Of a stretch of DNA of 48,830 bases, positions 1 to 42,406 are shown one piece after another. The translations under genes and the position numbers were made by a program. The notes beneath the pieces are model-generated. The model worked only from the letters and a program-made list of their open reading frames with translations, was not told the DNA's origin and ran no database searches. The DNA is from a virus, in the IMG/VR virus record IMGVR_UViG_3300034069_000920, positions 1 to 48,830 of that record. One strand, written 5' to 3'. The first letter of the stretch is position 1, and each line of letters opens with the position of its first letter.

Positions 1-141
1 ATCGGCGATGTATTCGACCGCCTTCGCGATGTTGCTGACGAGTCTGTGGACTGCTGCGTCACCTCGCCGCCCTACTGGAACCTGCGCGACTACGACGTTG
101 AAGGTCAGATCGGTATGGAGCCGACGCTCGCGAAGCATCTC
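1..141. repeat. End overlap, copy 1 (identical to 48690-48830)
   Basis: Read base by base: ATCGGCGATGTATTCGACC...GCGAAGCATCTC occurs at both window ends. It lies inside a coding frame, so it looks like the closure of a circular assembly rather than an LTR or att repeat. Confidence 0.95.
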
Positions 142-1200
142 GAGGTGATGGTTCGGGTTTTCGAGGAGGTGCGCCGCGTCCTGAAGCCACATGGTAACTG
201 CTTCATAAACTATGGCGATTGCTATGCGACGACGCCGAATGGGCGATCAGCAGAGGATAGCAAGGCGGCTGGCGGTGATGACCGGACGTTCCGCGATAAG
301 CCCGCCAGCACGATCGGCGGAGGAATAAAGGCGAAGGATCTGTGCATGATCCCGAACCGGCTCGCGATCGCGCTGCAGGACGCAGGATGGTGGGTTCGTT
401 CTGAAATCGTGTGGGGGAAGACCAACCCGATGCCGGATAGCTCCGGCTCGCAACGTCCGGCGACGGCGCACGAGAAGATTTTCTGGCTCGCGAAGTCTGA
501 CGACGCGCCAATCTGGCGCGCGCGAGACACTGGCGAGCTGTCCTTCGCGCCAGACCTCACGCAGCGCTGCGCTTTGATCACCGACCCTACACGCACCGGA
601 CAGCGCTGGCTGAACATCGGCACGTTTTACGATGCTGGAGCTGTGCTGCAAGGCCGCACATCGGATGAGGATGCCGTGACCTATCGCGGCGGCTCTTATG
701 TCGGGGGCGAGCCAGGCCCGCGGGTGGCGGTGGGCAATAAGCGGATCAAGATGCCCGATGGCTGGGACACTGGTGCGGGCGGCCACGGATCGCATCATCG
801 CCTCGGCCGTGAAAAGGGCCAAACACGCACGGTCAGCCCTCGCCACGAGGGCCATATTAATCACACCGGCATCGCCAATACGCCGCGCGACCAAGGCCGC
901 TACCTGCGCAATTACGAGCCAGCAGCTCTCGACGTCTGGGAGATGGCGATCGAGCCGTTCCGCGACGCGCACTTCGCGACATTCCCGACAGAATTGGCGC
1001 GTCGGGCTATCCTCGCCGGGTGTCCGAAGGGCGGTGTCGTGCTCGACCCGTTCTTCGGCGCCGGCACCACTGGAATGGTCGCCGACCGGCTGCAGCGCGA
1101 CTGCATCGGCATTGAGCTCAATCCCAAATACGCCGACATCGCCCACCGTCGCATTGAGCGCGACCGGGGCGGTTTACTTGATGCGATGGAGGCCGCTTGA
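1..1200 (+). CDS. DNA methyltransferase, beta-class (N6A/N4C type); body and 3' end, with the 5' end at 48672-48830 across the circular junction
   Basis: The frame of ORF 46..1200 is open from base 1 and joins in frame to the ATG at 48672 (MTVSILIGDVFDRL...). Motif IV (CVTSPPYW) is near the N-terminus and motif I (VLDPFFGAGTTG) near the C-terminus, which is the beta-class order. HEKIFWLAKS lies between them. Confidence 0.85.
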   Translation: MGDVFDRLRDVADESVDCCVTSPPYWNLRDYDVEGQIGMEPTLAKHLEVMVRVFEEVRRVLKPHGNCFINYGDCYATTPNGRSAEDSKAAGGDDRTFRDKPASTIGGGIKAKDLCMIPNRLAIALQDAGWWVRSEIVWGKTNPMPDSSGSQRPATAHEKIFWLAKSDDAPIWRARDTGELSFAPDLTQRCALITDPTRTGQRWLNIGTFYDAGAVLQGRTSDEDAVTYRGGSYVGGEPGPRVAVGNKRIKMPDGWDTGAGGHGSHHRLGREKGQTRTVSPRHEGHINHTGIANTPRDQGRYLRNYEPAALDVWEMAIEPFRDAHFATFPTELARRAILAGCPKGGVVLDPFFGAGTTGMVADRLQRDCIGIELNPKYADIAHRRIERDRGGLLDAMEAA

Positions 1201-1935
1201 ATGCCCCGCCGCTCCCGCTACACCACGATGCCGAGCGACTTCGCGGAACGAGCCGCGACTGAAAGCTCGACCGCTCTACGCAATCACTACCGCGTCCAAC
1301 TAGAGCGGATCGTCGCTTGGCGCCGGGAATGCGGCATACCTTCGCCGATGATCCGGCCGCCGGTGAATGCCGGCCCGCCCCCAGGCTTCGCGGAAGAGGC
1401 GGCGGTCAAATCCAGCGCGGAACTGGTAAAGCTTTATCGACGCACCGCCGATACCATAGCGAAATGGCGTCGGGACTGCGGCGTCAGGGCGCCGGGCAAC
1501 TCACACGTCACGTCTGGAACGTTCCAGCCTGTGCCGACACCGGAGAACTTCGCTGCGCTCGCGCCCACCATGACGCGGCATGAGGCGGCGGCATTCTTTG
1601 GCCACGGCGCGGCTGTGCTCAAGCGGTGGGCAGCCGAGGCTGGCGTCAGCTTCCGCAAGCAGATCAGCGTCGTATCTGGACGCCGTGCGGCAAAGGTCCG
1701 CAACACTGCACGCGACATGAGCCGCGCCGGCCAAGCGGCCGAGTTCCTTCAGAAGTTCGGGCCGGTGTTCCGCTGTAACGGAACAGGCCAGCCGGACGTC
1801 AAGGGCAATCACTGGCGGCGCGGCACCACCACCCTCACCGCCGACGAGATCATCGCGCGCGCCGAGCGCAACGGTTGGCGACCCGACGCCTGGAAACAGC
1901 TTTCCACCCCACACAACGAAGGAGCACGAGCATGA
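1201..1935 (+). CDS. Hypothetical DNA-binding protein with three tandem HTH-like repeats
   Basis: The ATG follows the MTase stop directly. There are three repeats of about 45 aa: ...LRNHYRVQLERIVAWRRECGIPSP, ...LVKLYRRTADTIAKWRRDCGVRAP and ...AAFFGHGAAVLKRWAAEAGVSF. The stop overlaps the dnaN start (ATGA). Confidence 0.6.
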   Translation: MPRRSRYTTMPSDFAERAATESSTALRNHYRVQLERIVAWRRECGIPSPMIRPPVNAGPPPGFAEEAAVKSSAELVKLYRRTADTIAKWRRDCGVRAPGNSHVTSGTFQPVPTPENFAALAPTMTRHEAAAFFGHGAAVLKRWAAEAGVSFRKQISVVSGRRAAKVRNTARDMSRAGQAAEFLQKFGPVFRCNGTGQPDVKGNHWRRGTTTLTADEIIARAERNGWRPDAWKQLSTPHNEGARA

Positions 1936-3098
1936 ACGTCCAAGCCTCGCGGGCGGATTTCCGCCGCGCCATCACCATAGCGTCGAAGGTCGTCGAACGC
2001 CGCAACGTCATCCCGATCCTTGATAGCCTGCGCTGCCGCGCGAACGGGTCGCTCGAGGTGACCGGCACCGATCTCGACAATCAGTTGACAGTCAATGTGC
2101 CGCGCTTGCCGGGCAAGGACGTGTCTTTCGCGCTGCTGTCACCTGGGCCCATCAATAAAGCGCTGGCGCTGGTCGGCGGTGACGACGTCACGCTATCATA
2201 CCTCGACGGCAAGGTCTCAGTCGCGTCGGGCGCGCTGGGCATGAACGTCGATACCCTGCCGGCCGATGACTTCCCGATCGATTGCGATCGCCCACTCGAC
2301 GCTATGTTCTCGGTGACCTTATCGCCGGCGCATATCCGCGCGCTCGGTCGGATCGCTGCGGCAATCTCAACCGAGGAGACGCGCTACTATCTCAACGGCA
2401 TCAACATCCGGCGGCGCGATAATGGACTTTACCGGGTGTCGGCCACCGATGGCCATCGCCTCTGCTTCATTGACATGGCTTTGCCGGATGCAGTCGGCGA
2501 TGTCGGCACGATCATCATACCAGCAAAGGCGGTCAGCTTGTTGCGCGAGCTCGCCGGCAAGGCGGTTGGTGACGTGAAGTTCGTTGTCGGCACCGTGCCG
2601 CCGGCAAATCGCGAGGAGACAACAGCGCCTGCCCGTGTCGGTGCGCCACGGATAAGCGCAGCGTTCGACATGAAGGGCGCCAAGGTCCGCTTGGTGTCGA
2701 AGCTGATCGACGGCACCTATCCAGACGTCGACCGCGTGATTCCGCAGGCGAACGACAAGCCGATGTCGTTCAACAGCGCGGAGCTCCGCGCCGCCCTACG
2801 TGCGGTCACTGGCCATTCTTCGCATTATCCCGCGCTGAAGCTCACGCTTGATGAGCAAGGCGCAACGGTCTCGTCATACTACTCCGGGTTGTCGATGGAT
2901 GCGGCCGTTCGCGTTGCGTGCGATCATCAGCACCCTGGCTTCGTGATCGGCCTCAACGGCGGATACCTGCTGTCTATGATCGACGCGGCCGGCGGCGACA
3001 CCTTCTACCTTTCGGCGCTCGATCCCTCCGGACCGGTGATGGTGAAGAACCCTGCCGATACGGAATGGACCGGCGTGCTCATGCCGATGCGCGTCTGA
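1932..3098 (+). CDS. dnaN: DNA polymerase III beta subunit (sliding clamp), phage-encoded
   Basis: 388 aa starting MNVQASR. DnaN hallmarks are present: ERRNVIPILDSL, EETRYYLNGINI, SATDGHRLCF, IIIPAKAV, KLIDGTYPDVDRVIP, IGLNGGYLL, and a C-terminal GVLMPMRV. Confidence 0.9.
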   Translation: MNVQASRADFRRAITIASKVVERRNVIPILDSLRCRANGSLEVTGTDLDNQLTVNVPRLPGKDVSFALLSPGPINKALALVGGDDVTLSYLDGKVSVASGALGMNVDTLPADDFPIDCDRPLDAMFSVTLSPAHIRALGRIAAAISTEETRYYLNGINIRRRDNGLYRVSATDGHRLCFIDMALPDAVGDVGTIIIPAKAVSLLRELAGKAVGDVKFVVGTVPPANREETTAPARVGAPRISAAFDMKGAKVRLVSKLIDGTYPDVDRVIPQANDKPMSFNSAELRAALRAVTGHSSHYPALKLTLDEQGATVSSYYSGLSMDAAVRVACDHQHPGFVIGLNGGYLLSMIDAAGGDTFYLSALDPSGPVMVKNPADTEWTGVLMPMRV

Positions 3099-3119: not shown

Positions 3120-3359
3120 ATGACAGACACCATAGCCGCCGACCAGTTGCGCCTCCTCATCGAGCGTATCGAGCGTCTTGAAGAAGAAAAGAAGGGCATC
3201 TCCGACGACATCAAGGACGTCTACGGCGAGGCCAAGTCGACTGGTTTCGACGTCAAGACGATCCGCACGATCGTCCGCCTGCGCAAGATGGAGAAACATC
3301 ACCGCGACGAGGCCGATGAGCTGCTGGAGACCTATAAGCAGGCGCTGGGGCTATCATGA
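3120..3359 (+). CDS. GapR-like nucleoid-associated protein (DUF2312/UPF0335 family)
   Basis: The 79-aa sequence [48 protein letters not shown] matches the conserved core of alphaproteobacterial GapR/DUF2312. An AGGGGA RBS lies upstream. Confidence 0.85.
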
Positions 3360-3646
3360 CGGACGGAGCCACCCGTTCCGCTGTTGCGGAACAGCAGCGT
3401 TTGCCGCGTGATGCGTGGCGAATGATGGGGCTGGAGACGGCAAGCGAGCTGCTTGGACACAATGCGCTTGCCGAGGCGCTGTCCATAGACCCGCGCTCGT
3501 TACGCTACAAGATACAGGCCGGTCGAGGTGTCTCTGACGTCGACATCACGCTTGCGGCGGGTGCTCTCGAGGCAAGCGCGGCGCGGATGGCTGACCATGC
3601 CCGCAAGCTGCGCGCCGCCCTGGCGCCGGAGAGCGCGGCCGCGTGA
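3356..3646 (+). CDS. Hypothetical protein (possible small HTH)
   Basis: 96-aa ORF. It has an ATGA overlap with the upstream stop and a GTGA overlap with the downstream start, and high GC3. Confidence 0.5.
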
Positions 3647-4434
3647 GCATCAGGATCATGACGGCGGTGTGGGCGACGAGATTGCCGGACAGCGAGAAGA
3701 TCGTTCTTCTCGCGCTGGCGGACTGTGCCAACGACGAGGGCGGCTGCTGGCCGTCGATGAGGACGCTCGCCGAAAAGTGCAGCAAGACCGATCGGACTGT
3801 TCAGGCTGCCATCAAGGCGCTGTGTGCAGCCGGACATCTCACCCGCAACGAGGTGCCCGGTAGGGGCTGCTCGTACGTCGTTCACCCCCGAACTGATTTC
3901 ACCCCCGCAGCGGCTTCACCCCCGAAGCAACTTCGCCCCGAAGTCGCTTCACCCCCGAAGCGAACGACGGTAACCCCCGAAGCCGCTTCGGACAAACCGT
4001 CAAGAACCACCATACCTCAGAAGGCTGCGCCTTCTTCGGTTGTTCGCGCGTCCAAACGAGCGACGGCATTCCCCGACAACTTCCAGCCGGTGATGACGGG
4101 CAAGACCGCGGAGGTCGTCAACGGCTGGCCGCCTGGTCGCCGCGAGGATGAGCTTGAGCACTTCGCCGACCACCATACCGCCAAGGGCAACACGAGCTGC
4201 GATTGGCAGGCGTCGTGGAGAACCTGGGTCAAGAATTCCACGAAATGGGAACCGCAGCATGGACCACATCAACCCCGTTCTCAGCCGGGTAACGGTCATC
4301 GAGGATCACGACCGCAGCCCGCCCTCGACCTTCTGCGAGCATCCCAGCGCGCGCAGCAAGACGAGCGTGCCGCCGGTGATCGCCGAGATCGTGGCGAAGC
4401 TGGGCCTGCGCTACCTGCCCTCTGGACAGGCTGA
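3643..4434 (+). CDS. Replication initiator-like protein (N-terminal winged-HTH; iterons in the linker-coding region)
   Basis: The N-terminus AVWATRLPDSEKIVLLALADCANDEGGCWPSMRTLAEKCSKTDRTVQAAIKALCAAGHL is typical of phage replication/organiser HTH domains. A proline-rich linker is encoded by repeated DNA. The end motif DWQASWRTWVKN is near 4230. The frame stays open to 4434, but GC3 collapses after about 4259. Confidence 0.6.
   Translation: MSIRIMTAVWATRLPDSEKIVLLALADCANDEGGCWPSMRTLAEKCSKTDRTVQAAIKALCAAGHLTRNEVPGRGCSYVVHPRTDFTPAAASPPKQLRPEVASPPKRTTVTPEAASDKPSRTTIPQKAAPSSVVRASKRATAFPDNFQPVMTGKTAEVVNGWPPGRREDELEHFADHHTAKGNTSCDWQASWRTWVKNSTKWEPQHGPHQPRSQPGNGHRGSRPQPALDLLRASQRAQQDERAAGDRRDRGEAGPALPALWTG
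3881..3991. repeat. Iteron array (candidate phage origin of replication)
   Basis: Six copies of TTCACCCCCGAAG-like 12-13-mers start at 3881, 3898, 3915, 3932, 3948 and 3971, mostly 16-17 bp apart. The array ends in the palindrome CCGAAG-CCG-CTTCGG (3976-3990). Confidence 0.6.
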
Positions 4435-4726
4435 CCGTGAGGCGCATGCTGAATTGCTGCTGCTGCTCGGTGAGGACTTGGCCGACGTGCCGGCGCAGCT
4501 GCTCGACGACGCGGCGCGGCGCTGGGCCAAGGAAGAAAAGTTCATGCCGCGCGCCAGCGAGATCCGCGACATGGCCCGGCGCATCCAAGGCGAGCGAACC
4601 AAGGGCACGGCAGCCGGTGACGATCAGCTTCAGCGCCAGTGCGACACGCTCAACGCCAAGAACGTCGACTGGCACTGGATTGTGGCCGGCACAGCGCCGA
4701 ACCGCAGCGTCGTTCGGGTGCGGTGA
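4259..4726 (+). CDS. Hypothetical replication-module protein (possible helicase-loader/G39P-like)
   Basis: The ATG at 4259 (MDHINPV) lies inside ORF 4148..4726. GC3 is very high in this frame from 4259 onward. The pattern LRYLPSGQADREAHAELLLLLGEDLADVPAQLLDDAARRWAKEEKFMPRASEI resembles loader N-domains. The functional call is weak. Confidence 0.45.
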   Translation: MDHINPVLSRVTVIEDHDRSPPSTFCEHPSARSKTSVPPVIAEIVAKLGLRYLPSGQADREAHAELLLLLGEDLADVPAQLLDDAARRWAKEEKFMPRASEIRDMARRIQGERTKGTAAGDDQLQRQCDTLNAKNVDWHWIVAGTAPNRSVVRVR

Positions 4727-4776
4727 CAGCACATCGCGTTCTGATTATGTTCTAGGGGTAAGGGAGTACGGTTATC

Positions 4777-5343
4777 ATGGCGCGGGGCAAAGATCAGAAC
4801 GGCTGGTGTATCTTGCGCACGGCGGGTCAGCGAACCCTCATTCTGGCGAAGTCGCTCACAGACGCCGGCTTTGATGCTTGGACCCCGGCTGAGACGCGCA
4901 AGCATAAGCTGCGAGGAGGCAAAACAGGTGAGGCTGAGAAGACGATGGCTCTGATGCCAACGTTTGTTTTTGTTCGCTGCCGCCATCTGCCGGAGTTGCA
5001 CTCCATCAGCACATCGCCATCGAGCCCGCATCCTGCATTCTCTCTGTTTCGATATCTTGGTCAGTTCCCGATCCTCGCCGACCGCGAAGTGGAGCGCCTG
5101 CGCGAGATTGAGCACCGCCATCTCCCCAAGGGGCAGCGCATCACGATGCCGATCGGCGCGACAGTCCGGCCCAAGGAAGGGCCATACACAGGCATGTCTG
5201 GAATTGTAGAGGCGAGCAAGAACGGGGCAACAATGGTCTTCTTCGGGGGGTGGATGAAGGTGAAAATAGACACTTTCATTCTTGAGCGAACCGATATAGA
5301 ACAGATGCAGCCCATATCCGGCACAGCTGCTTTGGCAGCATAG
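4777..5343 (+). CDS. NusG/RfaH-like transcription elongation/antitermination factor (NGN + KOW)
   Basis: The NGN-like N-terminus reads WCILRTAGQRTLILAKSLTDAGFDAWTP...MPTFVFVRC. The KOW-like C-terminus reads GATVRPKEGPYTGMSGIVEASKNGATMVFFGGWMKVKI. An AAGGGAG RBS lies upstream. Confidence 0.7.
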   Translation: MARGKDQNGWCILRTAGQRTLILAKSLTDAGFDAWTPAETRKHKLRGGKTGEAEKTMALMPTFVFVRCRHLPELHSISTSPSSPHPAFSLFRYLGQFPILADREVERLREIEHRHLPKGQRITMPIGATVRPKEGPYTGMSGIVEASKNGATMVFFGGWMKVKIDTFILERTDIEQMQPISGTAALAA

Positions 5344-5429
5344 GCGCGTCCGAGCAGTTGCCGGCGCCGAAGCGTGGAGAAGCCCTGCTTCTGCCCGTGT
5401 GCCGAAGGCTTTCGACATAGGTGAGTGCC

Positions 5430-5594
5430 ATGGCAATGAGCCGCGCCGATCGTCTCCGCATTATTGCTGATGAGCTTATGACGCTCGCCGATGCCGACGA
5501 GCAGCCTTCGCGATCAACCGCCCGCGCCGATATGCTGATCGCGGAAGGTGAGCGGATCGCGATTGCGGTGTGGGTCGCCTTCCGCGGCCGATGA
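5430..5594 (+). CDS. Small hypothetical protein (54 aa, below the ORF-track cutoff)
   Basis: Read from sequence: MAMSRADRLRIIADELMTLADADEQPSRSTARADMLIAEGERIAIAVWVAFRGR. The stop overlaps the next ATG (ATGA at 5591-5594). GC3 is moderate. Confidence 0.35.
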   Translation: MAMSRADRLRIIADELMTLADADEQPSRSTARADMLIAEGERIAIAVWVAFRGR

Positions 5595-6205
5595 TCGGGA
5601 TTGACATTCGGGGCAGCCTCAGGCCCCTTCAACGCACGTTCATCGCCCTCGGCGCCAAACAGGTGCCATTCGCAACATCTCTCGCGCTGAACGCCTTGGC
5701 TAAGGGTGTCGCCGCTGACGAGGCGAAGCTGATCGACGAGACATTCAAGTCGCCGACCCCCTTCACTGAGGCGGCATATCGGATCGAGGTCGCGACCAAG
5801 TCGAAGCCGGTTGCACGCGTTGCGGCGAAAGACATCCAGGCACAATACCTCAAGCCTTATGTTGTGGGCGGCGACCGATACCTCGGAACCAAGCGCGGCA
5901 TGCTGGCGCCGCGCGGTGTGAACCTCAACCAGTATGGCAACCTGACCAAGGGCAAGCTTCAGTCCCTCAAGGGTAAAAAGGGCGTGTTCATCGGAACACG
6001 TAAGACGCGTTCTGGTAAGGTGATCAACGGTGTGTGGCAGCGCCCGACCAGCAAGGGGCCACTGAAGCTGCTCATCCAGTTCGAAGACACGACCCCTGCC
6101 CCTAAGCGCCTGCCATTCGCCGAGCGAGCGCAGGCATACATCAGGGCGAACGCCGCCAACGAGTTCGACATTGCGCTGCGCCGCGCGCTCGCGACGGCAC
6201 GATAG
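5591..6205 (+). CDS. Conserved hypothetical phage protein
   Basis: The internal ATG (MIGIDIRG) of ORF 5570..6205 is coupled by ATGA to the upstream small ORF. GTG 5570 is an alternative start. GC3 is high. Confidence 0.6.
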   Translation: MIGIDIRGSLRPLQRTFIALGAKQVPFATSLALNALAKGVAADEAKLIDETFKSPTPFTEAAYRIEVATKSKPVARVAAKDIQAQYLKPYVVGGDRYLGTKRGMLAPRGVNLNQYGNLTKGKLQSLKGKKGVFIGTRKTRSGKVINGVWQRPTSKGPLKLLIQFEDTTPAPKRLPFAERAQAYIRANAANEFDIALRRALATAR

Positions 6206-6494: not shown

Positions 6495-6963
6495 GTCCGC
6501 ACCCCGATGTCCGCACGGCTGAGCGTTCGCGAGTTCGCGCGGCAAGCTGGCTGCGATGAAAAGCAGGTCCGCCGCGCGATTGAGAAGGGGCTGATTTCCA
6601 AGGGAAACGACGGTTTGCTTGACGCAAGCCAGGTCGCTGGACATTGGCGCAAGCCGAACCGCCGCGGCGTATCGCGCGCGGCTGCGGACATGGCGGAAGC
6701 GCCGCGGACAACTGGAAATGTCCGCACACCGACGCGCGCGCGCAAAACGTCCGCAACTGTCCGCACCGGTGAGACCCCCGAGCAGGCTGCCGAGCGGATC
6801 GTCACGGAGGCCGGCGACCTACTATCGCTTGCCGATGCGCTTAAGCTGAAAGAGAACTATCTCGCTCGGCACCAGCAGCTTTCATACGACCTCAAGTGCG
6901 GAACGGTCGTGATCGCCGCCGATGTCGCGAAAGCGGTCGGTGCGGAATATGCCACGGTCCGCA
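6495..6963. repeat. GTCCGCA repeat cluster (candidate terminase small-subunit binding sites, cosB/pac-like)
   Basis: The core GTCCGCA occurs at 6495, 6509, 6720, 6749, 6759 and 6957 on the plus strand. It occurs inverted at 6683-6689 (TGCGGAC) and 6703-6709 (CGCGGAC, 1 mismatch). Most copies extend to (A/T)TGTCCGCAC. Confidence 0.5.
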
Positions 6964-7106
6964 CCCGCATGCTGGCGATCCCTTCGGAGATGGCCCCGGC
7001 CATCCACCGCCTGACGTCGGTCGTCGAAGTCGAGGACCTCCTTCGCAGCGTCATCGGCCAGGCGCTGGAGGAACTCACGCGTGACGGGATCCAAACGGTC
7101 GCCTGA
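6507..7106 (+). CDS. Terminase small subunit (Nu1-like, N-terminal HTH)
   Basis: The N-terminal HTH reads LSVREFARQAGCDEKQVRRAIEKGLI. The gene lies immediately upstream of, and overlaps, the gpA-type large terminase. The C-terminal pattern is like lambda-type small terminases. Confidence 0.6.
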   Translation: MSARLSVREFARQAGCDEKQVRRAIEKGLISKGNDGLLDASQVAGHWRKPNRRGVSRAAADMAEAPRTTGNVRTPTRARKTSATVRTGETPEQAAERIVTEAGDLLSLADALKLKENYLARHQQLSYDLKCGTVVIAADVAKAVGAEYATVRTRMLAIPSEMAPAIHRLTSVVEVEDLLRSVIGQALEELTRDGIQTVA

Positions 7107-9108
7107 GGCTGGCATATACGACGCCGGCTTCGCCACGCTTACTGCGGCTCTCTGCAAGGCACGTCGGGAAAATCTGCAACCGCCTCCGTCACTGACGCTA
7201 AGCCAGTGGGCCGGCAACTTCGCTGTATTGTCGCGCGAAACGAGCGCCCAGACCGGCCGGTTTCGCGCCTACGCCTATCAGGTCGGCATGATGGATGCGG
7301 TCACCGACCCGACCGTCACCCAGATTACTGTCATGAAGTCGGCGCGCGTCGGCTATACCAAGATCCTCGATCACATCATCGGGTATTACATCCACCAGGA
7401 TCCTAGTCCGATCCTGCTCGTGCAACCCCGCGTGGAGGACGCTGAGGATTACAGCTCGACCGAGATCGAGCCGATGCTGCGTGACACACCTGTCCTCGCC
7501 GCGATCACCGGTGACTTGAAGGCGAAGGACTCGAAGCAGAAGCTGCTGAAACGGGTTTTCCGCAACGGCGCATCAATCTCCTTCGTCGGCGCGAACAGCC
7601 CGGGCGGTTTTCGCCGTATCACCGCCCGGATCGTGCTTTTCGATGAGACGGACGGCTATCCAGTCGGCGGCGCTGGTAATGAGGGCGATCAGGTCAAGCT
7701 TGGCATTCGGCGCAGCCAGACGTTCTGGAATCGCAAGATCGTCCTTGGCAGCACTCCGACGGTCAAGGGCATGAGCAGGATCGAGAAATCGTTTCTGCAA
7801 AGTGATCAACGTCGGTGCTTCGTCCCCTGCCCTCACTGCGGTGAGCATCAGGTATTAGAATGGGGCGGCCCCGATACGCCGCACGGCATCAAATGGGACC
7901 GGGACGAGCATGGTGCGGGGCGCCCTGAGACGGCGCATTACGTTTGCTCCGCAAACGGCTGCATCATCGAGGAAGCGGACAAGCCCCGTATGCTGGCCGC
8001 CGCCGAATGGCGCGCGACGGCCCCCTTCACCGGGCACGCAGGGTTTCATATTTGGACAGGCTATAGCCTCGATCCGAACGCCTCTTGGCCGAACCTGGTC
8101 GGCGAATGGCTCGAGGTGATGAACGACCCGCTTACGCGGCAGACGTTCATCAACACCGTACTCGGTGAGCCGTACGAGGATCGCGGCGAGCTCGCACTCG
8201 GCGAGGCGAAGCTCCTTGCCAGGTGCGAGGTGTTCGAAGCGGAGGTGCCGAACGGCGTCGCGCTAATCACGGTCGGGATCGACACGCAGAACGATCGTCT
8301 CGAGGCCGAAGTCGTCGGATGGGGCCGCAACGAGGAATCTTGGTCGATCGCCTATGAGGTGTTCGATGGCGATCCAAACGATCCGGGAGTGTGGGACACC
8401 CTCGACGAGTTCTTGAAGCGTATCTGGTACCGAGCTGATGGGCGCGGCTTCAAGGTAGAGGCCGCCTGTATCGACACTGGCGGCAGCCGCACCGAGGCCG
8501 TCTACCAGTTTGCGAAGGCTCGGATCGGCCGCAAGATCTGGGGCATCCGCGGCGAACCGGCGCGGGGTGGTAAGCGGTCGCCGATTTGGCCATCGAAGAA
8601 GCCGACGCAGCGCACGCGCAAAACTTATCAGCCATTCACGATCGGTGTGAACGCAGCGAAAGACGTGATCCGCAACCGGCTCCACGCGGATACCCCAGGC
8701 CCGGGCTACATGCATTTCCCTACCGACCGCGACGTGAACTATTTCGCGCAGCTCACCGCCGAACGCTCGATCGTTAAGCAATCTGGCGGGCAACGATATC
8801 GTGTTTGGGAGTGCCCGCCCGGTCGCGCGAACGAAGCGCTTGACTGCCGAGTCTACGCCTATGCGGCGCTGGCGGGATTGATGCACTTCGGGCTGAAGCT
8901 CAACCGCTTGGTTGACCAGGTCGTGATCCAACACGAAGTGCGCCCGGACAGTCCTGATGCAGCCCCAGCCCCATCCCCTGCGCCGATTGATGCGCCCGGC
9001 GATGGTGGCGGCGGTCCCTCAGGTCCAACGATTCGATCAGGTCCAGAGACCGACCCACCGCGGCGCGTGACTGTAGGTAACAAATTGGCGAGGAGGTCAC
9101 TGTCATGA
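7081..9108 (+). CDS. Terminase large subunit, lambda gpA family
   Basis: 675 aa. It contains LTLSQWAGNFAVLSRETSAQTGRFRAYAYQVGMMDA...VMKSARVGYTKIL, a CxxC zinc motif (CPHCGEHQ), and GIDTQNDRLEAEVVGWG, all typical of GpA terminases. Confidence 0.9.
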   Translation: MTGSKRSPEAGIYDAGFATLTAALCKARRENLQPPPSLTLSQWAGNFAVLSRETSAQTGRFRAYAYQVGMMDAVTDPTVTQITVMKSARVGYTKILDHIIGYYIHQDPSPILLVQPRVEDAEDYSSTEIEPMLRDTPVLAAITGDLKAKDSKQKLLKRVFRNGASISFVGANSPGGFRRITARIVLFDETDGYPVGGAGNEGDQVKLGIRRSQTFWNRKIVLGSTPTVKGMSRIEKSFLQSDQRRCFVPCPHCGEHQVLEWGGPDTPHGIKWDRDEHGAGRPETAHYVCSANGCIIEEADKPRMLAAAEWRATAPFTGHAGFHIWTGYSLDPNASWPNLVGEWLEVMNDPLTRQTFINTVLGEPYEDRGELALGEAKLLARCEVFEAEVPNGVALITVGIDTQNDRLEAEVVGWGRNEESWSIAYEVFDGDPNDPGVWDTLDEFLKRIWYRADGRGFKVEAACIDTGGSRTEAVYQFAKARIGRKIWGIRGEPARGGKRSPIWPSKKPTQRTRKTYQPFTIGVNAAKDVIRNRLHADTPGPGYMHFPTDRDVNYFAQLTAERSIVKQSGGQRYRVWECPPGRANEALDCRVYAYAALAGLMHFGLKLNRLVDQVVIQHEVRPDSPDAAPAPSPAPIDAPGDGGGGPSGPTIRSGPETDPPRRVTVGNKLARRSLS

Positions 9109-13010: not shown

Positions 13011-13032
13011 GCCCGCCGTTGCGCGGGCTTTT
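13011..13032 (+). terminator. Terminator-like hairpin between the decoration and capsid genes (possible attenuator)
   Basis: A GCCCGC (13011-16) / GCGGGC (13023-28) stem with a 6-nt loop is followed by TTTT (13029-32). Confidence 0.35.
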
Positions 13033-13046
13033 CAGGAGCCCACCCA

Positions 13047-14120
13047 ATGGCCGATAATCTGAGCTATACGACCGCAGAGCTTGTCCAGGTCGTTCCCAAC
13101 CTCAAGACCTCGCAGAACTTCCTGCTCGACCGGTATTTCGGCAACATCATCGAATACGATACCGAGGAGGTCGCGATCGACATCGACGTCGGTCTGCGCC
13201 GCATGTCGCCGTTCGTTTCCCCGCTTGTCGAGGGCAAGTTGGTCGAGCAGCGCAAGTTCATCACCAACAAGTTCAAGCCGCCCTACATCAAGGACAAGCG
13301 GGTACCGGACGTGCGCAAGCCGGTCCGACGCGCGATCGGCGAGCGGATCGGCGGCGGTGAGTTCACCGCCGAAGAGCGGATGATGGCGAACCTTCAGTTC
13401 GAGATGGAAGACCAGGTCGACATGGTCAACCGCCGGCTCGAGTGGATGGCGGCGTCTGCGCTGACCACCGGCACCGTCACCATCGCCGGCGATGGCTTCC
13501 AGACTGCCGTGATCGACTTCGGTCGCTCTTCGACGCTGACGATTGCGCTGACCGGCGCCAACAAATGGGGCGCGACGCTCAACTCCGCCGGCCGCGATAC
13601 CAACATCGTCGGCCAGATTGATGCCTTTGGTTCGCGTATCCTGAAGCTGTCGGGCGCAGTCGCGACCGATATCATCTTCACCAACTCGTCTTGGGCGCGC
13701 TTCCTGCAGGCCGAGGGGGTTCAGGGTGCCATCCAGTATCCGACCCTCGCCGTTGATGGCAACACGCTCAACCCTGGCTCGCAGATCAAGAAGGGCGCGA
13801 TCTACAAGGGCAAGTGGGGCCAGTATGACCTGTGGCTCTACAACGATTGGTACATCGATTCGAACAATGTCGAGCAGCCGATGCTGGCCGACGGTTCGAT
13901 CCTGATAACCGGCCCCGAGCTGCTCGGCACGCGTGCGTTCGGCATGATCATCGACCCGAGCTTCGCGTACAAGGCGATGGCCTATGCGCCGAAGACCTGG
14001 ATCCAGCAGGATCCGGCGCAGCAGATCATGATGATGCAGTCGGCGCCGCTGGTCATCCCGAGCCGCGTAAATGTCAGCCTGTGCGCGGTCGTCTGCGATC
14101 CGATCATCCAGAGCTTCTGA
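13047..14120 (+). CDS. Major capsid protein, lambda gpE family
   Basis: 357 aa. LVQVVPNLKTSQNFLLDRYFGNIIEYDTEEVAIDIDVGLRRMSPFVSPLVEGK is typical of the Phage_cap_E N-terminus. An AGGAG RBS is present. Confidence 0.9.
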   Translation: MADNLSYTTAELVQVVPNLKTSQNFLLDRYFGNIIEYDTEEVAIDIDVGLRRMSPFVSPLVEGKLVEQRKFITNKFKPPYIKDKRVPDVRKPVRRAIGERIGGGEFTAEERMMANLQFEMEDQVDMVNRRLEWMAASALTTGTVTIAGDGFQTAVIDFGRSSTLTIALTGANKWGATLNSAGRDTNIVGQIDAFGSRILKLSGAVATDIIFTNSSWARFLQAEGVQGAIQYPTLAVDGNTLNPGSQIKKGAIYKGKWGQYDLWLYNDWYIDSNNVEQPMLADGSILITGPELLGTRAFGMIIDPSFAYKAMAYAPKTWIQQDPAQQIMMMQSAPLVIPSRVNVSLCAVVCDPIIQSF

Positions 14121-19498: not shown

Positions 19499-19518
19499 CG
19501 GCAAGCGCTACCAATGAG

Positions 19519-19911
19519 CTACTTGCCCTGCACCCTGAAATTTGCAGTGACTGATTTGCTTCCCAAGTGGGCGAGGCACGAAATACCCTGAACCACGCCA
19601 TGATCTGCGAATATTCGACATTTACCGCTTGCCGGATCAGCGATCCGCGGGCGCAAATAGACACGAGCGATTGACAGATCAGAGCCCTCAGCATCGCCAG
19701 CAAAGCCTACGGGACTGCCTGATCCGTGTTTTAGAAATTGGACTAGGACGCCTTTCGATCCTGCGCCCATCGTGATGACCGCAGCGTCACAAACGACCTG
19801 TAGATCATTCGAACTCTTTGGCAGTCCCTGATATTCGCAGATTCCGTCCAAGACTTCTGGTTCATTCGGGCTGCCAGCAGCCATCAGTACAAGTGCGATC
19901 GCAAACGACAT
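19519..19911 (-). CDS. Secreted small protein (moron, antisense to the tail operon)
   Basis: 130 aa with a GGAG RBS 6 nt before the ATG. It has an N-terminal signal-like segment (MSFAIALVLMAAGSP) and 4 Cys. GC is about 51-54% by eye, against about 64% for the flanks. Confidence 0.6.
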   Translation of the reverse strand: MSFAIALVLMAAGSPNEPEVLDGICEYQGLPKSSNDLQVVCDAAVITMGAGSKGVLVQFLKHGSGSPVGFAGDAEGSDLSIARVYLRPRIADPASGKCRIFADHGVVQGISCLAHLGSKSVTANFRVQGK

Positions 19912-19996
19912 AGACGTCTCCGTTGAAGATCAGACAGTAGCACAATCGCGGTCAGCGCAAGAGTTCCTTCGCGATCCCCGCACATGATTGGAGGCG

Positions 19997-32497: not shown

Positions 32498-33124
32498 ATG
32501 AAGCCGTTCACCGCGGACCTGCTCGCGCAGGTCTTCGCGCCGACCCCGCGCGCCACCTGCTCCCTGTACGCTGCACCGCTTGAGGCAGCATGCCAGCGCT
32601 ACGGGATCAACACCGTCGCGCGCCGGTCCGCGCTGCTCGGGCAGATGGGGATCGAGTGCTCCCGCCTCACCCGCATGTCGGAAAACATGAACTATCGCGA
32701 CCCACAGCGGCTCGACGATATGTTCTCGGCCGTGCGTGGCTTCGCCGATGCAAGCGCGCTCATCAAGGCCGGGCCGCAGGCGATCGCCAACCGGGTTTAC
32801 GCGTATCGTCTTGGCAACGGTGACGAGGCGAGCGGCGACGGCTGGCGGCATCGCGGCGCGGGCGGGATCGGTTGCACCGGCAAGACCAATCAAGCCGCAT
32901 TCGGCGCCGCGATCGGCATGCCCCTCGCCAAGGTGCCGGCCTACCTGCTCACCCCTGAGGGCGCGATGCTGGTCACGGGCTGGTTCTGGGACACGCATCA
33001 CCTCAACCCGCTGGCGGATGCCGGCGACATCGACGCGATCACCCGCGTGGTCAACGGCCCGGCGATGACGGCTGCCGATGAGCGACGCGCACTGACCATC
33101 AAAGCAGGAAAGGCATACGCATGA
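32498..33124 (+). CDS. Endolysin, glycoside hydrolase family 19
   Basis: GQMGIECSRLTRMSENMNY (two catalytic-type Glu), IANRVYAYRLGNGDEASGDGWRHRGAG, TGWFWD and ITRVVNGP fit GH19 phage endolysins. Confidence 0.85.
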   Translation: MKPFTADLLAQVFAPTPRATCSLYAAPLEAACQRYGINTVARRSALLGQMGIECSRLTRMSENMNYRDPQRLDDMFSAVRGFADASALIKAGPQAIANRVYAYRLGNGDEASGDGWRHRGAGGIGCTGKTNQAAFGAAIGMPLAKVPAYLLTPEGAMLVTGWFWDTHHLNPLADAGDIDAITRVVNGPAMTAADERRALTIKAGKAYA

Positions 33125-35558: not shown

Positions 35559-35592
35559 AGAGCGCTCGAGCTTCGGCTCGGGCGCTCTTTTT
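35559..35592 (+). terminator. Rho-independent terminator ending the long rightward (late) transcription unit
   Basis: AGAGCGCTCGAGC (35559-71), TTCG loop and GCTCGGGCGCTCT (35576-88) form a 13-bp stem with one G-T wobble, followed by TTTT. Confidence 0.8.
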
Positions 35593-35979: not shown

Positions 35980-36453
35980 TTATTCCTTGGCTGGGGCGGC
36001 GAGCATGGGCAACATCGGGGGCATGGAACCGATCCGATATGCCTCTGCGATCTGCGGCCGCATCCACTCGCTGACGGTTCGTTTATCGGGCAAGACGATG
36101 TTCGCCATGAACTCGTCTTCGAACACACTAATGCCGCTCTCGACGGCTTCCAACTTCGCCTTGATGACGAGAGCCAGTGCACGCCAGCGCTGCCGCGATG
36201 CCTGCTCCCATTCCTTCTTAGCCGCCTCGGGAGCGCGGATGCCCCGGCTGTGATGGGTGAACTTCCGATCGTTGCGATCAGGCAGCGGAAGGATGAAACG
36301 GATGTGCCGGCCATCCATGCGGAAACCGATCACGGCAGCATCGTCCTGCCAGCCGTAGAGGAACTGGTCGGCGCCATACCGCTCCAGTGTCCGTTCTATC
36401 TCGTCGCGTGACTTTGAGGTGCTGACCTCCGTGCTGGCTGCGTACCGGGTCAT
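35980..36453 (-). CDS. Conserved hypothetical phage protein
   Basis: 157 aa and the last gene of the minus-strand array. Contains the conserved-looking RQRWRALALVIKAKLEAVESGISVFEDEFMANIVLP. Confidence 0.6.
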   Translation of the reverse strand: MTRYAASTEVSTSKSRDEIERTLERYGADQFLYGWQDDAAVIGFRMDGRHIRFILPLPDRNDRKFTHHSRGIRAPEAAKKEWEQASRQRWRALALVIKAKLEAVESGISVFEDEFMANIVLPDKRTVSEWMRPQIAEAYRIGSMPPMLPMLAAPAKE

Positions 36454-37181
36454 GCCCCCTCCCCCGCATCGGTTGCCGGGGCGGCGGGGAGTGGTTCGTC
36501 ATCCATCGCCGTCAGTTCGGCCAACGCTTTGCGGCGAGGCGTGTCAAACAGCTCTTCCCGCGCCCCATGCTGGCGGGCGAGGGCTTCAAGAGCGGACAGC
36601 ATCCGAGCGCTGGCGTCCACCATGCCGTTCGAGTGCGCTTTGTCCTGCTTCCCGACTTCCGAAGCATCACGAACGATTTTGGAAACGGCTTCCCGCAACG
36701 CCTCCACCACCCCCGGTGCGGCCTCTGCCTGCGCGGGCTCGTCGCGCTTCAACAGCATCTGTAGCCGCAGCGCCATTTCGAGCAGCGTGCCGATGTGCCA
36801 GCGCCACACCAGCGCGGTTTGGTCTGGCACATGCGGTTGCTGTTTTACGTAGGCTTCACGCACCGCCAGCCGCGACGCCTCGTAGCGATCGGTCGGCCTT
36901 TCCGTCTTGAGCGGATCAGGGCCAATGTCAGGCCATTCGTGCGGCGCGGCCTCTACCTGCTTGAGCGCGGTTACGATGGCGGGGCGGGTGTTCCAGGCTC
37001 GGATAGCCCAAGCTTCGCTCGCGATATCCCAGCTAGGCGTCTGATTGGCGGGGCATTTCTTGCACTGGACTCCAACGGTATTGCGGCCAGCATCAAGGGA
37101 TATTTCAGCCTCCCCGCCACAGAACGGACAGGGTGCCAGCGCCTCAATCTGCGCCGTGATCGTGGGGGTGGGATCAGTCAT
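36450..37181 (-). CDS. Lar-family (restriction alleviation) zinc-ribbon domain fused to a C-terminal domain of about 175 aa with unknown function
   Basis: The N-terminus LAPCPFCGGEAEISLDAGRNTVGVQCKKCPANQ...AIRAWNTRPA matches the Lar-family pattern CPFCGG...C..C...AWN.R. Total length is 243 aa. Confidence 0.65.
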   Translation of the reverse strand: MTDPTPTITAQIEALAPCPFCGGEAEISLDAGRNTVGVQCKKCPANQTPSWDIASEAWAIRAWNTRPAIVTALKQVEAAPHEWPDIGPDPLKTERPTDRYEASRLAVREAYVKQQPHVPDQTALVWRWHIGTLLEMALRLQMLLKRDEPAQAEAAPGVVEALREAVSKIVRDASEVGKQDKAHSNGMVDASARMLSALEALARQHGAREELFDTPRRKALAELTAMDDEPLPAAPATDAGEGA

Positions 37182-38615: not shown

Positions 38616-38899
38616 TTCACCATTCCTTCCGTATCTGACGACAGGGGATGCAGGGTGCGGATCAGCGCAACTGCCTGCTCAAGGTCAGCCGCAAACGCAT
38701 CGTCCTTCTCAGCGCTGCGCTGGTGGTCAATCTGCATGCGGACAGCATAGACGTTATGCCCTTCGCGCCCTTTGAACGCCTCCCGCTGCGGCTTGAGCAG
38801 GTCGGCCACGATACGGCTGTTGGCGGCTATCTCGCGCTCAAGCTCTGCCCGTTTGGCTAGACGAACCGCCAGCGCCTCTAACTCGTCGGGGTTTGTCAT
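38612..38899 (-). CDS. Hypothetical coiled-coil protein
   Basis: 95 aa with 4-nt overlaps with both neighbours. Confidence 0.5.
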   Translation of the reverse strand: MTNPDELEALAVRLAKRAELEREIAANSRIVADLLKPQREAFKGREGHNVYAVRMQIDHQRSAEKDDAFAADLEQAVALIRTLHPLSSDTEGMVK

Positions 38900-39675
38900 G
38901 CTGCGATCCGATCAAGCATGTCAGCCTGTACAGGCTGGCGAAGTGCGAGCAGCTCGGTGAAATCAGCGGAGACGACTTCAACCCGTGGTTTCACTCCACG
39001 CCACGCGTTTCGGTACACCTCGCAATCGACGCTTTCGCAGGTCAGTTCGATACCGGTTGCTTTTGTAAACCGATCGTATTTCGCGGAAGATCGATTTTTG
39101 TACTCCCGGCATCCGCTGTACTCGAATGGGACCGAGCCACCGGGCAGAATGAACGTGCCGAAGTCCGCAAGGCATGACGCAACGTCAACCACCGCAAGAT
39201 CGTCCTCGCCGGCATAACGGGGGCTGGCAATCTTGGCGGTTTTGCCGAAAGGCGGGTTCGAGATAGCTCGATCAAAATGACCGATGTCTGCCGGTAGGTC
39301 GTTGACACCGGCGCAAATCCATCGAGCCTCTGGCAGCAGCTTTCGCCCCACATCGACATAGGCCGGGTTGATCTCGACGCACACCAGCTCGAGCGGCGAA
39401 TGTCCCCAGCGCCAATAGCTGGAAAGCGCCAGACAGCCGATGCCTGCGCATAGGTCTATTACTCGCCCACCTTCATAGAGGCCGAGGAACAGCGCCGCAT
39501 CAAGGCCGAGGCCCGATGGCGTAAAGAATGCGCCGGCTGCGGAGTTCACATGGTTCGCCGACTCCTGCCAGTTATCCAGAACGAACTCGCGCTCGTCGTC
39601 CGACAGCCGGTCCTTACTCAAGATCGCCACAGCCTCTTGATGCGCTTTGATCTGCGCTTTGCTGAGGCGGCTCAT
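38896..39675 (-). CDS. N6-adenine DNA methyltransferase, gamma-class order (X-I-IV)
   Basis: Motif X is GAFFTP, motif I is VIDLCAGIGCL and motif IV is SNPPFG. The protein is 259 aa. A GGGAG RBS is present. Confidence 0.75.
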   Translation of the reverse strand: MSRLSKAQIKAHQEAVAILSKDRLSDDEREFVLDNWQESANHVNSAAGAFFTPSGLGLDAALFLGLYEGGRVIDLCAGIGCLALSSYWRWGHSPLELVCVEINPAYVDVGRKLLPEARWICAGVNDLPADIGHFDRAISNPPFGKTAKIASPRYAGEDDLAVVDVASCLADFGTFILPGGSVPFEYSGCREYKNRSSAKYDRFTKATGIELTCESVDCEVYRNAWRGVKPRVEVVSADFTELLALRQPVQADMLDRIAA

Positions 39676-39856
39676 ACCGATGCACTCCCATTTGATGGGG
39701 TGGGGAGACGGCAGCCTTCGACTCGAAAGATCAGCTGCTCATGACCTGCCGGAGCTGACTTTCGCCCTTTCCGACAAAATCGGAGTTGCGTCAGGGTATC
39801 GTTACGGTACAGAGCGAGAAAATGACGTAAGATTTGTTGAAAAGATTGATAAATCA

Positions 39857-39906
39857 GCTGACTCTTAATCAGCGGGTCCTTGGTTCGAGCCCAAGTGCGT
39901 CCACCA
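39857..39906 (+). tRNA. Partial tRNA-Lys(CUU), 3' fragment only = attP core (not a functional tRNA gene)
   Basis: Anticodon stem GCTGA/TCAGC, loop CTCTTAA, variable region GGGTC, T arm CTTGG-TTCGAGC-CCAAG, acceptor 3' strand TGCGTCC, then A and CCA. No matching 5' acceptor strand (GGACGCA) or D arm lies upstream. Confidence 0.75.
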
Positions 39907-40495: not shown

Positions 40496-40878
40496 GCCGC
40501 CTGATCCGGCTGAGGATAGCCCTGATCGGCCAGCCATTGCGGCACGTGAGCGGCGGGCGCGAATCCTTTTGAAACATCCGCGAGCGGGCGGATAAGGCGC
40601 AAGGGGTCCACCTTCCCCTCAATCACGGCGGCCATCGCGACCATGCAATATTTGTCGCATTCGACTGCCCCGAACGAGACGGCAAGCGCCCGCCTACTCT
40701 TCGCTATGTCGTAATGCGGCCAAGAAACCTTCCGCATCGTGGCCGGGTTCTGAAACCACTTCCGAGCGACTCCGATGCGATCGGCCATCGCGTGCAACTC
40801 GTCGAGGTTCGGCGAAAACATGTGGCACATGATCATGCGGCCATATCCGTGCGTAGCGTTGTCGACATACACGCTCAT
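40492..40878 (-). CDS. DUF4031 family protein
   Basis: MSVYVDNATHGYGRMIMCHMFSPNLDELHAMADRIGVARKWFQ...HYDIAKSRRALAVSFGAVE matches the DUF4031 pattern. Confidence 0.75.
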   Translation of the reverse strand: MSVYVDNATHGYGRMIMCHMFSPNLDELHAMADRIGVARKWFQNPATMRKVSWPHYDIAKSRRALAVSFGAVECDKYCMVAMAAVIEGKVDPLRLIRPLADVSKGFAPAAHVPQWLADQGYPQPDQAA

Positions 40879-42167: not shown

Positions 42168-42406
42168 CAGTCGAACCACTGGCCGGTATCGGTGGCGGCG
42201 CTGCTCTCGAACATCGCGGCCATGGCGGCGTCGAGATCCACGCGCCGCGCGATCGCCGCGCCGTTCCGCCCACGAGGAACGAATCGCACCGCGCCGCGGT
42301 CGCGCCACTCTTTCATCTGCGCCGCGCTCACGCGCGTATAGTCGAGCGCCTCCGCCTCGGTGAGGGCGGCCGGCCAGTCTGGCAGGCTTGCGAGCGCGGT
42401 CATCAC
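42167..42406 (-). CDS. Excisionase/AlpA-like HTH protein
   Basis: 79 aa, directly upstream of int. LTEAEALDYTRVSAAQMKEWRDRGAVRFVP is an MerR/AlpA-type HTH pattern. Confidence 0.55.
   Translation of the reverse strand: MMTALASLPDWPAALTEAEALDYTRVSAAQMKEWRDRGAVRFVPRGRNGAAIARRVDLDAAMAAMFESSAATDTGQWFD

Follow-up and report, generated by a model that had tools for sequence, protein, structure and literature searches.

How a phage late region of about 30 kb is transcribed to its end is the question raised by the virus record IMGVR_UViG_3300034069_000920, of which we analysed positions 1 to 48,830 (48,830 nucleotides (nt); hereafter the window). Directly ahead of this region, at 4777-5343, a plus-strand open reading frame (ORF) encodes a NusG-like protein of 188 residues. 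RfaH, LoaP, UpxY and TaA are bacterial means of transcribing long, foreign or costly operons to the end, and the central question in this family is how each specialised NusG paralogue finds its target. Late gene control in phages has its textbook cases in Q, N, the put RNA and alternative sigma factors, and NusG paralogues are, to our knowledge, not among them. We found that the protein has the NusG/Spt5 fold, that its gene keeps its place at the early/late junction of related phages, and that it is followed by a covarying sense-strand element, the gene and the element being associated in both directions. With moderate confidence, we read the protein as a phage-borne specialised NusG paralogue that would be loaded at its own adjacent element and would make late transcription processive. 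A late-switch role of the protein is probable, and the element is, on the sequence evidence, a plausible loading site for it.

A NusG/Spt5-family protein at the early/late junction

The first-pass annotation, made from the sequence alone, had proposed an NGN-like N-terminus and a KOW-like C-terminus for the product of this gene, and the peptides that it named are all present in the translation of the ORF (GWCILRTAGQRTLILAKSL..., LMPTFVFVRC, IGATVRPKEGPYTGMSGIVE...TMVFFGGWMKVKI). Profile searches and structure prediction, which it had suggested as a check, confirmed a NusG-family factor with both domains. As a single sequence, the protein matched the Pfam families NusG NGN (E 0.0096) and KOW5_SPT5 (E 0.0036), both under the gathering score, and 22 out of 55 homologs matched PF02357 individually, with E up to 1.5e-6. 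PHROG 6386, labelled "transcription antiterminator", was matched with E 4.8e-24 (protein residues 7-156 aligned with positions 12-159 of the 179 in the profile). The KOW motif G-x-V-x-V-x-x-G-P-F-x-G is present as GATVRPKEGPYTGMSGIV, and the NGN domain of the NusG/Spt5 superfamily was recovered by Pfam, AlphaFold2, Foldseek and hhalign.

A profile of the 55 homologs (A1) was used for a PDB search and for AlphaFold2. The PDB search retrieved only Spt5, NusG, RfaH and uL24 chains, with Spt5 KOW chains reaching E 8e-9. The AlphaFold2 model (mean predicted local distance difference test score 83) has an alpha/beta N-domain (strands and helices between residues 10 and 79), which a linker helix joins to a C-domain made of beta-strands only (129-171). 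All the top ~30 Foldseek matches in the PDB were NusG, RfaH or Spt5 (E down to 2e-7). The NGN domain alone aligned with RfaH (8pen_P) at a template modelling (TM) score of 0.73 and a root-mean-square deviation (rmsd) of 3.5 over 103 columns, and the KOW domain alone with Spt5 KOW5 (8p4e_Z) at TM 0.79 and rmsd 1.2; full-length TM-scores were low because the domain orientations differ. Both domains were also aligned by hhalign to E. coli RfaH (E 3.8e-4), with LMPTFVFVRC paired to LFPNYLFVEF at the FPGY-type strand of the NGN fold. In the viral structure library BFVD, the best matches were uncultured-phage proteins labelled RfaH (E 8e-10) and NusG (E 2.5e-6). The identification as a NusG/Spt5 superfamily member with NGN and KOW domains is thus secure.

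As judged from its sequence, the protein belongs to a discrete and sizeable phage/prophage family that is distinct from housekeeping NusG, RfaH and UpxY. It scored 14.6 bits against the housekeeping NusG model TIGR00922 (cutoff 135.7), and its phage early/late context differs from the secE-nusG-rplKA context of housekeeping NusG. Against the RfaH model TIGR01955 it scored 15 bits (cutoff 144.5), and a family-specific PxxPHPxFSxF block stands in the place of the RfaH HTT region. The strongest NCBIfam match was UpxY (NF033644; E 1.7e-7, model positions 1-144 of 164), with 31.4 bits versus a cutoff of 100 and in a phage context, not as the first gene of a Bacteroides capsular polysaccharide operon; the NCBIfam RfaH and NusG matches had E ~0.02, and all NCBIfam matches were far under their curated cutoffs. 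Among 5.8 billion proteins searched, 134 homologs were found (170-260 aa, 33-62% identity), from metagenomes, Sphingomonas isolates and a Methylobacterium metagenome-assembled genome, some of them named NusG by their source. Sphingomonas sp. T9W2, PsM26, PvP055 and Y57 and S. cannabina are among the strains with a homolog. A HMMER scan of 1.84 billion cluster representatives found 332 clusters at E <= 1e-30 and 550 at E <= 1e-10, and the family size of ~330 clusters refers to clustering at 50% identity. Among 50,697 deposited phage genomes there was no DNA match and no tblastn relative, and a single-protein scan of species-representative genomes found nothing.

The gene had been placed by the first-pass annotation at the position of lambda Q, as the last gene of an early/replication block ahead of the late operon. 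The block holds genes for a DNA methylase, a beta-clamp, GapR and an O-like replication initiator, with the NusG-like gene as its last member, and no Q-type gene was found in it by Pfam or PHROG. In related phages the position is retained in 64 out of 69 loci with four terminase families. An IMG/VR scan gave 80 further loci, and in the 69 loci that had at least 4 kb of downstream sequence we called by Pfam the first downstream plus-strand ORF of at least 400 aa. This ORF was a large terminase subunit (TerL) in those 64 loci, of the TerL_ATPase/nuclease (37), GpA (16), Terminase_3 (8) and Terminase_6N (3) types, at 144 to 6061 nt from the gene (median ~1.6 kb). Since the junction position is kept while the structural module is swapped, the gene behaves as expected of a late regulator.

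Three of the related contigs (L001, L002 and L004) share one gene order: a minus-strand CI-like repressor (HTH_3 + S24), a cro-like gene, DUF1376, helicase/primase, an unassigned gene and the NusG-like gene, followed by (HNH) TerS, TerL, portal, protease and capsid genes. In L001 and L004 the start of the NusG-like gene abuts the stop of the upstream gene, which points to its co-transcription with the replication genes. A conserved upstream partner gene was considered and rejected, as the candidate was found in one locus only; the upstream neighbour varies among loci, so there is no fixed partner protein.

A conserved sense-strand element behind the gene

We detected a conserved sense-strand element 20-95 nt past the stop codon of the gene, formed by a hairpin (P3), a spacer and a mini-hairpin (Table 1). 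A k-mer comparison of the 500 nt that follow the stop codon with control regions 3 kb downstream singled out GAAGTCCGAAGGCT as enriched, and TCCGAAGG was present in 14 out of 71 non-redundant loci versus 0 controls. The window carries TGCCGAAGGCT at 5400-5410, and variant last blocks of like architecture were found in other loci (GTCCTACGGTATGG, GTGCTACGCAATGG, GTGCAACGCATTGG, AAGCGAAGCTATG and GTGCGGCGCATA). The mini-hairpin reads CCUACGG, GCUACGC, GCAACGC, GCGAAGC or GCGGCGC elsewhere, and the spacer that separates it from P3 is conserved as GGGCG-A/U-rich-GU. The presence of P3 at a fixed offset gave a combined p = 8e-5 in a shuffle test.

Indels defeated MAFFT with RNAalifold, which gave essentially no consensus structure in 96-nt windows, so a hand-registered, N-padded alignment was needed; a sequence-only nhmmer iteration stalled at 22 loci. 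For the covariance model, 24 clear instances were registered by hand (A5) and used to build a first model (R1), whose hits were realigned (A6) to give the final one (R2). In a search of 84 sources (2.4 Mb counting both strands), R2 found 30 loci at E < 0.01, all on the plus strand directly after the gene, about nine weaker matches at the equivalent place, the window included (30-39 out of 84 loci in total), and one or two further matches that were clearly spurious. The best R2 match on either strand in an unfiltered scan of the whole window was the copy at 5363-5417 (plus strand; 19.8 bits, E 0.016). Its subtype is common to L005 and L001, and among these three sequences the identity is ~91% in the element core (61/67), 60-62% in the gene and 47-53% in the next 150 nt; here the element is better conserved than the NusG-like gene itself.

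The helices of the element covary. In the model-fitted alignment of 42 distinct sequences (A7), 97.8% of cells were paired versus 28-41% with slid partners, and there were 60 double-sided changes versus 5-27 in the slid controls. The covariation score was 0.589, compared with at most 0.127 in the slid controls, and it was reached by 0 out of 500 shuffles. All five core pairs of P3 had compensatory changes (one pair was GC in 18, AU in 16 and CG in 4), and the outer pair of the mini-hairpin was C-G in 30 sequences and G-C in 11. With 10 G.U pairs and 0 A.C pairs in its helices, the structure is assigned to the sense strand, either as RNA or as non-template DNA. Two long-range helices were tried and rejected (GCAGCC/GGCUGC, "Pout", shuffle p = 0.83; GGACU/AGUCC, "P1", p = 0.38, search freedom being allowed for), and the RNA fold of the whole region 5340-5440 was as stable as that of shuffled sequences (z = -0.6). 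A loose definition of the element (a hairpin of at least 5 bp, 5-11 nt, and S-C-NNN-G-S') was also rejected: it occurred ~1.0 time per 320 nt in the region and in the background alike, so structure alone is no evidence in GC-rich DNA. No Rfam 15 family matches the element, there was no relevant match at E <= 10 in 4600-5700, and at the gathering score nothing but a marginal tRNA elsewhere was found in the window.

The association holds also when the search starts from the element. Two of its 16-mers retrieved 100 IMG/VR loci, many of which were expected to be chance matches in a collection of this size, and R2 called 19 of them genuine. Thirteen of the 17 R2-positive loci with upstream room carry a NusG-like ORF on the same strand (E 1e-49 to 1e-82) that ends 35-74 nt upstream of the element. 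The R2 matches in L091 and L098 were rejected as false positives inside a coding ORF; the gene lies directly upstream of 13 out of 15 genuine testable elements, and it was found in 1 out of 81 R2-negative loci. Two element copies ~0.7 kb apart were seen in L056 (8573-8622 and 9317-9371), in L141 (2633-2687 and 1963-2017, minus strand) and likewise in L179. As regards the range of the element, no R2 match was obtained in a subgroup with Terminase_3-type TerL (L014, L016-L022, L024-L026). By eye, the same subgroup has a related layout with a short spacer ~10-110 nt past the stop, in which the hairpin CCCGC-TAATA-GCGGG is followed, after 3 nt, by GCGACGC. The element family is probably wider than what R2 detects.

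A further hairpin lies at the stop codon. In relatives, the conserved Ala-Ala codons, the stop and the next five bases read GCNGC-N-stop-GCNGC, with the stop codon in the loop in most of them. A perfect 5-bp match in the exact register was present in 19 out of 72 non-redundant loci, versus 5.0 expected by permutation (maximum 11 in 2000) and 0-4 in shifted registers, and two covarying versions were found (GCTGC/GCAGC, 9 loci; GCCGC/GCGGC, 8 loci). In the window this hairpin lies just inside the ORF, which is why the ORF ends in ...AALAA; as the hairpin uses the last codons of the gene, the element begins inside the gene. The ...AALAA end (5323-5343, residues 183-188; ...AA in most homologs) resembles an ssrA-type ClpXP degron, and the conserved "AA" may be a by-product of the hairpin, a degron, or both.

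The first-pass annotation had pointed to the gaps on both sides of the gene as places for an ops-like recruitment or pause element. No such element was found in the upstream gap 4727-4776, which has no significant structure. The ops consensus is missing from the downstream gap as well, and what that gap (5344-5430) holds is an element of a different kind, the covarying hairpin with its mini-hairpin. The E. coli ops sequence GGCGGTAGnnTG has 63 matches in the window at <=2 mismatches, versus 54 +/- 7 expected, none of them on the plus strand in either gap. At 4716-4751 a terminator-like hairpin is overlapped by a sigma-70-like promoter match (GTGACA-17-TATGTT) in the 50-nt gap before the gene; we rejected these terminator-like and promoter-like matches of the region 4705-4780, which scored z = +0.7 versus shuffles and are unconserved, the gene of the relatives abutting its neighbour. 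A consensus scan found no promoter-like site in 5344-5570.

Layout of the window

The features of the window are collected in Table 1. All annotated late genes are on the plus strand, as the first-pass annotation had stated, with one break that it had missed, a 490-nt low-GC insert. This insert is probably a moron, and its candidate ORF, which had no Pfam or PHROG match, the sole reverse-strand gene within the late region. The strong terminator that had been proposed at the end of the region was borne out (-29.3 kcal/mol, z = -4.6, 0/200 shuffles). The internal terminator-like hairpin at 13011-13032 does have a 6-bp GC stem followed by UUUU, and it is too weak for the consensus scan, which did not report it. 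The lower GC content that had been noted by eye for the NusG-like gene is real yet modest (0.577, against 0.633 on average in the window), which is the 2.6th percentile for equal-sized (567-nt) windows; at third codon positions (GC3), it is 0.66 versus 0.70-0.89 in the neighbours.

Table 1. Features of the window. Positions are those of the window, except for the protein domains, which are given as residues.
Feature	Position	Strand	Details
N6/N4 DNA methylase	46-1200	+	Pfam/PHROG
Beta sliding clamp	1875-3098	+	Pfam/PHROG
GapR-type nucleoid protein	3120-3359	+	PF10073, E 1e-34
O-like replication initiator	3643-4434	+	Pfam/PHROG
ORF without assigned function	ends 4726	+	directly upstream of NusG-like gene
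NusG-like gene	4777-5343	+	ATG start, 188 aa; ORF list
NGN domain	residues ~9-100
Linker helix	residues 102-114
KOW beta-barrel	residues ~124-171
C-terminal tail	residues 173-187		disordered, ends AALAA
Stop-region hairpin	5326-5339	+	GCTGC-TTTG-GCAGC; very end of ORF; read from sequence
Cis element	5363-5417	+	5' tract, P3, spacer, mini-hairpin, 3' flank; covariance model R2, ~55 nt
Hairpin P3	5378-5392	+	AGAAGC-CCT-GCTTCT; local fold -6.9 kcal/mol
Mini-hairpin	5402-5408	+	CCGAAGG, general form S-C-NNN-G-S'; invariant inner C-G
Small ORF, first after element	5430-5594	+	54 aa, no family
Late region (presumed target)	5570-35528	+	packaging, head, tail, baseplate, fibres, lysis, unknowns; PHROG
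phrog_1924 protein	5570-6205	+	first sizeable late-region gene
TerS	6507-7106	+	PHROG annotation
TerL	7081-9108	+	GpA-type; PHROG annotation
Portal, protease, decoration protein		+	in this order after TerL; PHROG annotation
Internal terminator-like hairpin	13011-13032	+	GCCCGC-CGTTGC-GCGGGC then TTTT; between decoration and major-capsid genes
Major capsid protein	13047-14120	+
Head closure, sheath, tube, tape measure, baseplate, fibre proteins		+	downstream of capsid; PHROG annotation
Low-GC insert	19499-19987		490 nt, GC 0.53; between tape-measure and baseplate-hub genes
Candidate ORF in insert	19519-19911	-	130 aa, GC3 0.51, hydrophobic N-terminus
Endolysin	32498-33124	+
Strong intrinsic terminator	35559-35592	+	end of late region; 13-bp stem, 9 GC pairs, T-run

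The 54-aa ORF that follows the element had no Pfam or PHROG match, and it has a tblastn match at an equal relative position in 7 related loci. The next gene matches phrog_1924, "minor tail protein" (E 1e-44), though it lies upstream of the terminase genes; this position is odd for a tail gene, so the label may be wrong. A phrog_1924 gene also stands directly after the element in L029, L030, L045 and L046.

Past the terminator the genes are on the minus strand, among them those for two more methylases and a Lar-like protein; there is also a weak tyrosine-integrase match (40875-42308), so the window is a temperate phage or prophage. Three DNA methyltransferases are listed (46-1200, 38896-39675, plus the Lar-like neighbour at 36450-37181). 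Next to the integrase match, at 39835-39903 (plus strand), Rfam called a tRNA barely over the gathering score (31.9 versus 29 bits), and ARAGORN called none; this may be what remains of a tRNA at an attachment site. The phage-borne GapR-type protein indicates an alphaproteobacterial host.

A candidate late switch: mechanism, alternatives and known systems

In the mechanism that we propose, transcription of the early/replication operon would reach the NusG-like gene last, and the accumulated protein would be loaded onto RNA polymerase as it crosses the element, from the stop-codon hairpin through P3 and the spacer to CCGAAGG. Recognition could be of the nascent RNA, as for LoaP, or of a mini-hairpin that the non-template strand of the DNA forms inside the transcription bubble, as for RfaH and ops; both modes fit the anatomy of the element, and its sequence cannot separate them. 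Several mini-hairpin variants read GCGAAGC, an unusually stable DNA mini-hairpin sequence. The NGN domain would bind polymerase instead of host NusG, and the polymerase so modified would resist pausing and termination, most likely Rho-dependent, and could transcribe the ~30-kb late region up to its strong terminator. As there is no terminator behind the element and the late region holds few intrinsic terminators, the barrier is more likely Rho-dependent termination and pausing, which would be overcome by excluding host NusG. Element binding, NusG displacement, antitermination and the type of termination overcome are what we infer here. The stop-codon hairpin could, in addition, link the loading of the factor to the translation of the mRNA that encodes it.

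Several observations weigh against this mechanism. Intrinsic terminators within 300 nt after the element were found in 2 out of 36 cases, versus a background of 7.7%; they are not enriched, so the element faces no visible barrier for an antiterminator, and a lambda Q/tR'-type layout is not what we see. One phage (L141/L179) has genuine elements and no NusG-like family member in its 12-kb locus, hence the element can occur away from the gene, and linkage by common descent could yield part of the gene-element association. R2 detects the element in just 30-39 out of 84 loci, the others having variants recognised by eye only, and the window copy itself is low-scoring and of a diverged subtype. Finally, the alignment behind the covariation counts was fitted to the model, so that the numbers lean towards structure, a bias that the slid controls share.

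Some of these observations would suit a general anti-Rho or anti-pausing factor that serves all phage transcription or host takeover and is not loaded at a specific site; the element at the 3' side of the early operon would then have no relation to the factor and could be, for example, an mRNA end, a small RNA, or an element for processing or stability. The expected co-transcription with the replication genes, with the start abutting the neighbour in L001 and L004, agrees with such a role, and so do the lack of a terminator behind the element and the phage with the element and no gene nearby. We consider it unlikely, since the element keeps a fixed distance and strand relative to the gene family despite unrelated neighbours and terminases, is better conserved than the gene, and since the characterised specialised NusG paralogues are all recruited at specific sites (PMC7819879, PMC12691694). 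An action of the opposite sense, in which the protein would promote pausing or termination at the element and hold the late genes off until relieved, or help lysogeny, is more improbable still. KOW domains of the NusG family are able to recruit Rho, and certain NusG proteins enhance pausing (PMC7819879, PMC12691694), the precedents being housekeeping NusG with Rho and the pro-pausing Bacillus NusG, and the AlphaFold2 KOW domain is a NusG-like beta-barrel and not an autoinhibited RfaH-type hairpin. A negative factor encoded last among the early genes, before the essential late genes, would nevertheless block the phage's own lytic programme, and the studied paralogues that adjoin long operons all activate them (PMC7819879). 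The C-rich tract that we considered as a rut-like site was rejected, being of just ~15-20 nt, too short for rut, and missing from the window copy.

That the element lies at a mosaic junction, with the terminase genes downstream of it, could also suggest a DNA packaging site (cos/pac) or a recombination "boundary" unrelated to transcription. This we hold to be very improbable, and cross-tabulation with terminase type led us to reject a cos/pac site: the element is present with both large, mutually unrelated TerL clusters (23/37 and 11/17 loci), so that its occurrence does not follow the terminase family. From the terminase it lies 0.1 to 6 kb away, while its distance to the NusG-like gene is fixed, and the helices covary and accept G.U and not A.C, as expected of a single-stranded sense-strand structure and not of a duplex site.

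Loading of a NusG paralogue at an adjacent element has its closest parallel in LoaP of Bacillus velezensis and other Gram-positives. Specialised NusG paralogues beside long target operons are antiterminators (PMC7819879), and LoaP acts alone as a processive antiterminator that requires an RNA hairpin in its target leader, bound through both domains (PMC12691694). The NGN and KOW domains, the gene beside a long operon and the adjacent hairpin element are common to both. LoaP belongs, however, to another sequence family (the best curated match here is UpxY, with 31 bits, and no LoaP-named match was found in NCBIfam or in the homolog searches of the window protein), and its targets are polyketide clusters and not phage late genes in Alphaproteobacteria. 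Moreover, its UNCG tetraloop hairpin lies upstream of a NusA-enhanced intrinsic terminator, whereas no terminator stands behind the element here. Enterobacterial RfaH likewise is a NusG paralogue, one that confers processivity on long operons acquired by horizontal transfer (PMC7819879, PMC12691694), and since the non-template strand of its short ops site forms a mini-hairpin in the bubble, S-C-NNN-G-S' could act in an ops-like manner. RfaH has a metamorphic C-terminal domain, which in the free protein is an alpha-hairpin packed on the NGN domain; this domain of the window protein is predicted as all-beta in a single AlphaFold2 prediction, with which fold switching would still be compatible. 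The ops consensus is absent, the RfaH HTT is replaced and the RfaH profile score is far under its cutoff, and rfaH stands alone, while this gene adjoins its presumed target.

With lambda Q, Q21, Q82 and BrrG, the gene shares its place as the last early gene ahead of a late operon and the presumed job of producing one long late transcript. There is no relation in sequence or fold (no Pfam or PHROG Q match; Foldseek matches to NusG/Spt5 only), and Q systems comprise a promoter, a Q DNA binding element (QBE), a sigma-dependent pause and a nearby terminator, whereas no promoter-like site or terminator was found around the element. BrrG of the Bartonella gene transfer agent shows that Q21-like antitermination controls a late-type cluster in an alphaproteobacterial phage-derived element (bioRxiv 10.1101/2024.11.20.624540). 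We rejected BrrG as a relative of the protein, as it is Q21-like and not NusG-like.

The protein call itself is not new: the window protein belongs with PHROG 6386, which PHROGs labels "transcription antiterminator", and with the phage proteins named NusG or RfaH in BFVD, labels that are annotations by similarity. A paper on an H. pylori prophage infers a NusG-like regulator, and a 2021 review of NusG names LoaP, RfaH, UpxY, TaA and ActX only (PMC7819879). Our literature searches yielded neither a functional study of a NusG-type late regulator from a phage nor a description of the adjacent element. The adjacent structured element is new here. Together, a NusG paralogue and a dedicated structured loading element that starts in the last codons of its gene may form a widespread class of phage late-gene switch, a generalisation that we offer tentatively and with less than even confidence.

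The pair is compact and self-contained, a 188-aa factor with a neighbouring element of ~55-110 nt, and the family spans hundreds of sequence clusters, with members in prophages of Sphingomonas strains that can be cultured. Recruitment is therefore directly testable, and natural covariation already indicates which nucleotides of the element matter. According to a 2025 paper, no NusG-like protein other than LoaP is known to have a specific association with an RNA element (PMC12691694). If our reading is true and the element works as RNA, this protein would be the second of that kind and the first from a phage; should the mini-hairpin work in the non-template DNA, it would be an independently arisen analogue of ops. 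In either case, the NusG family would gain a recruitment mode, phages a further type of late switch, and Alphaproteobacteria a small orthogonal antitermination part.

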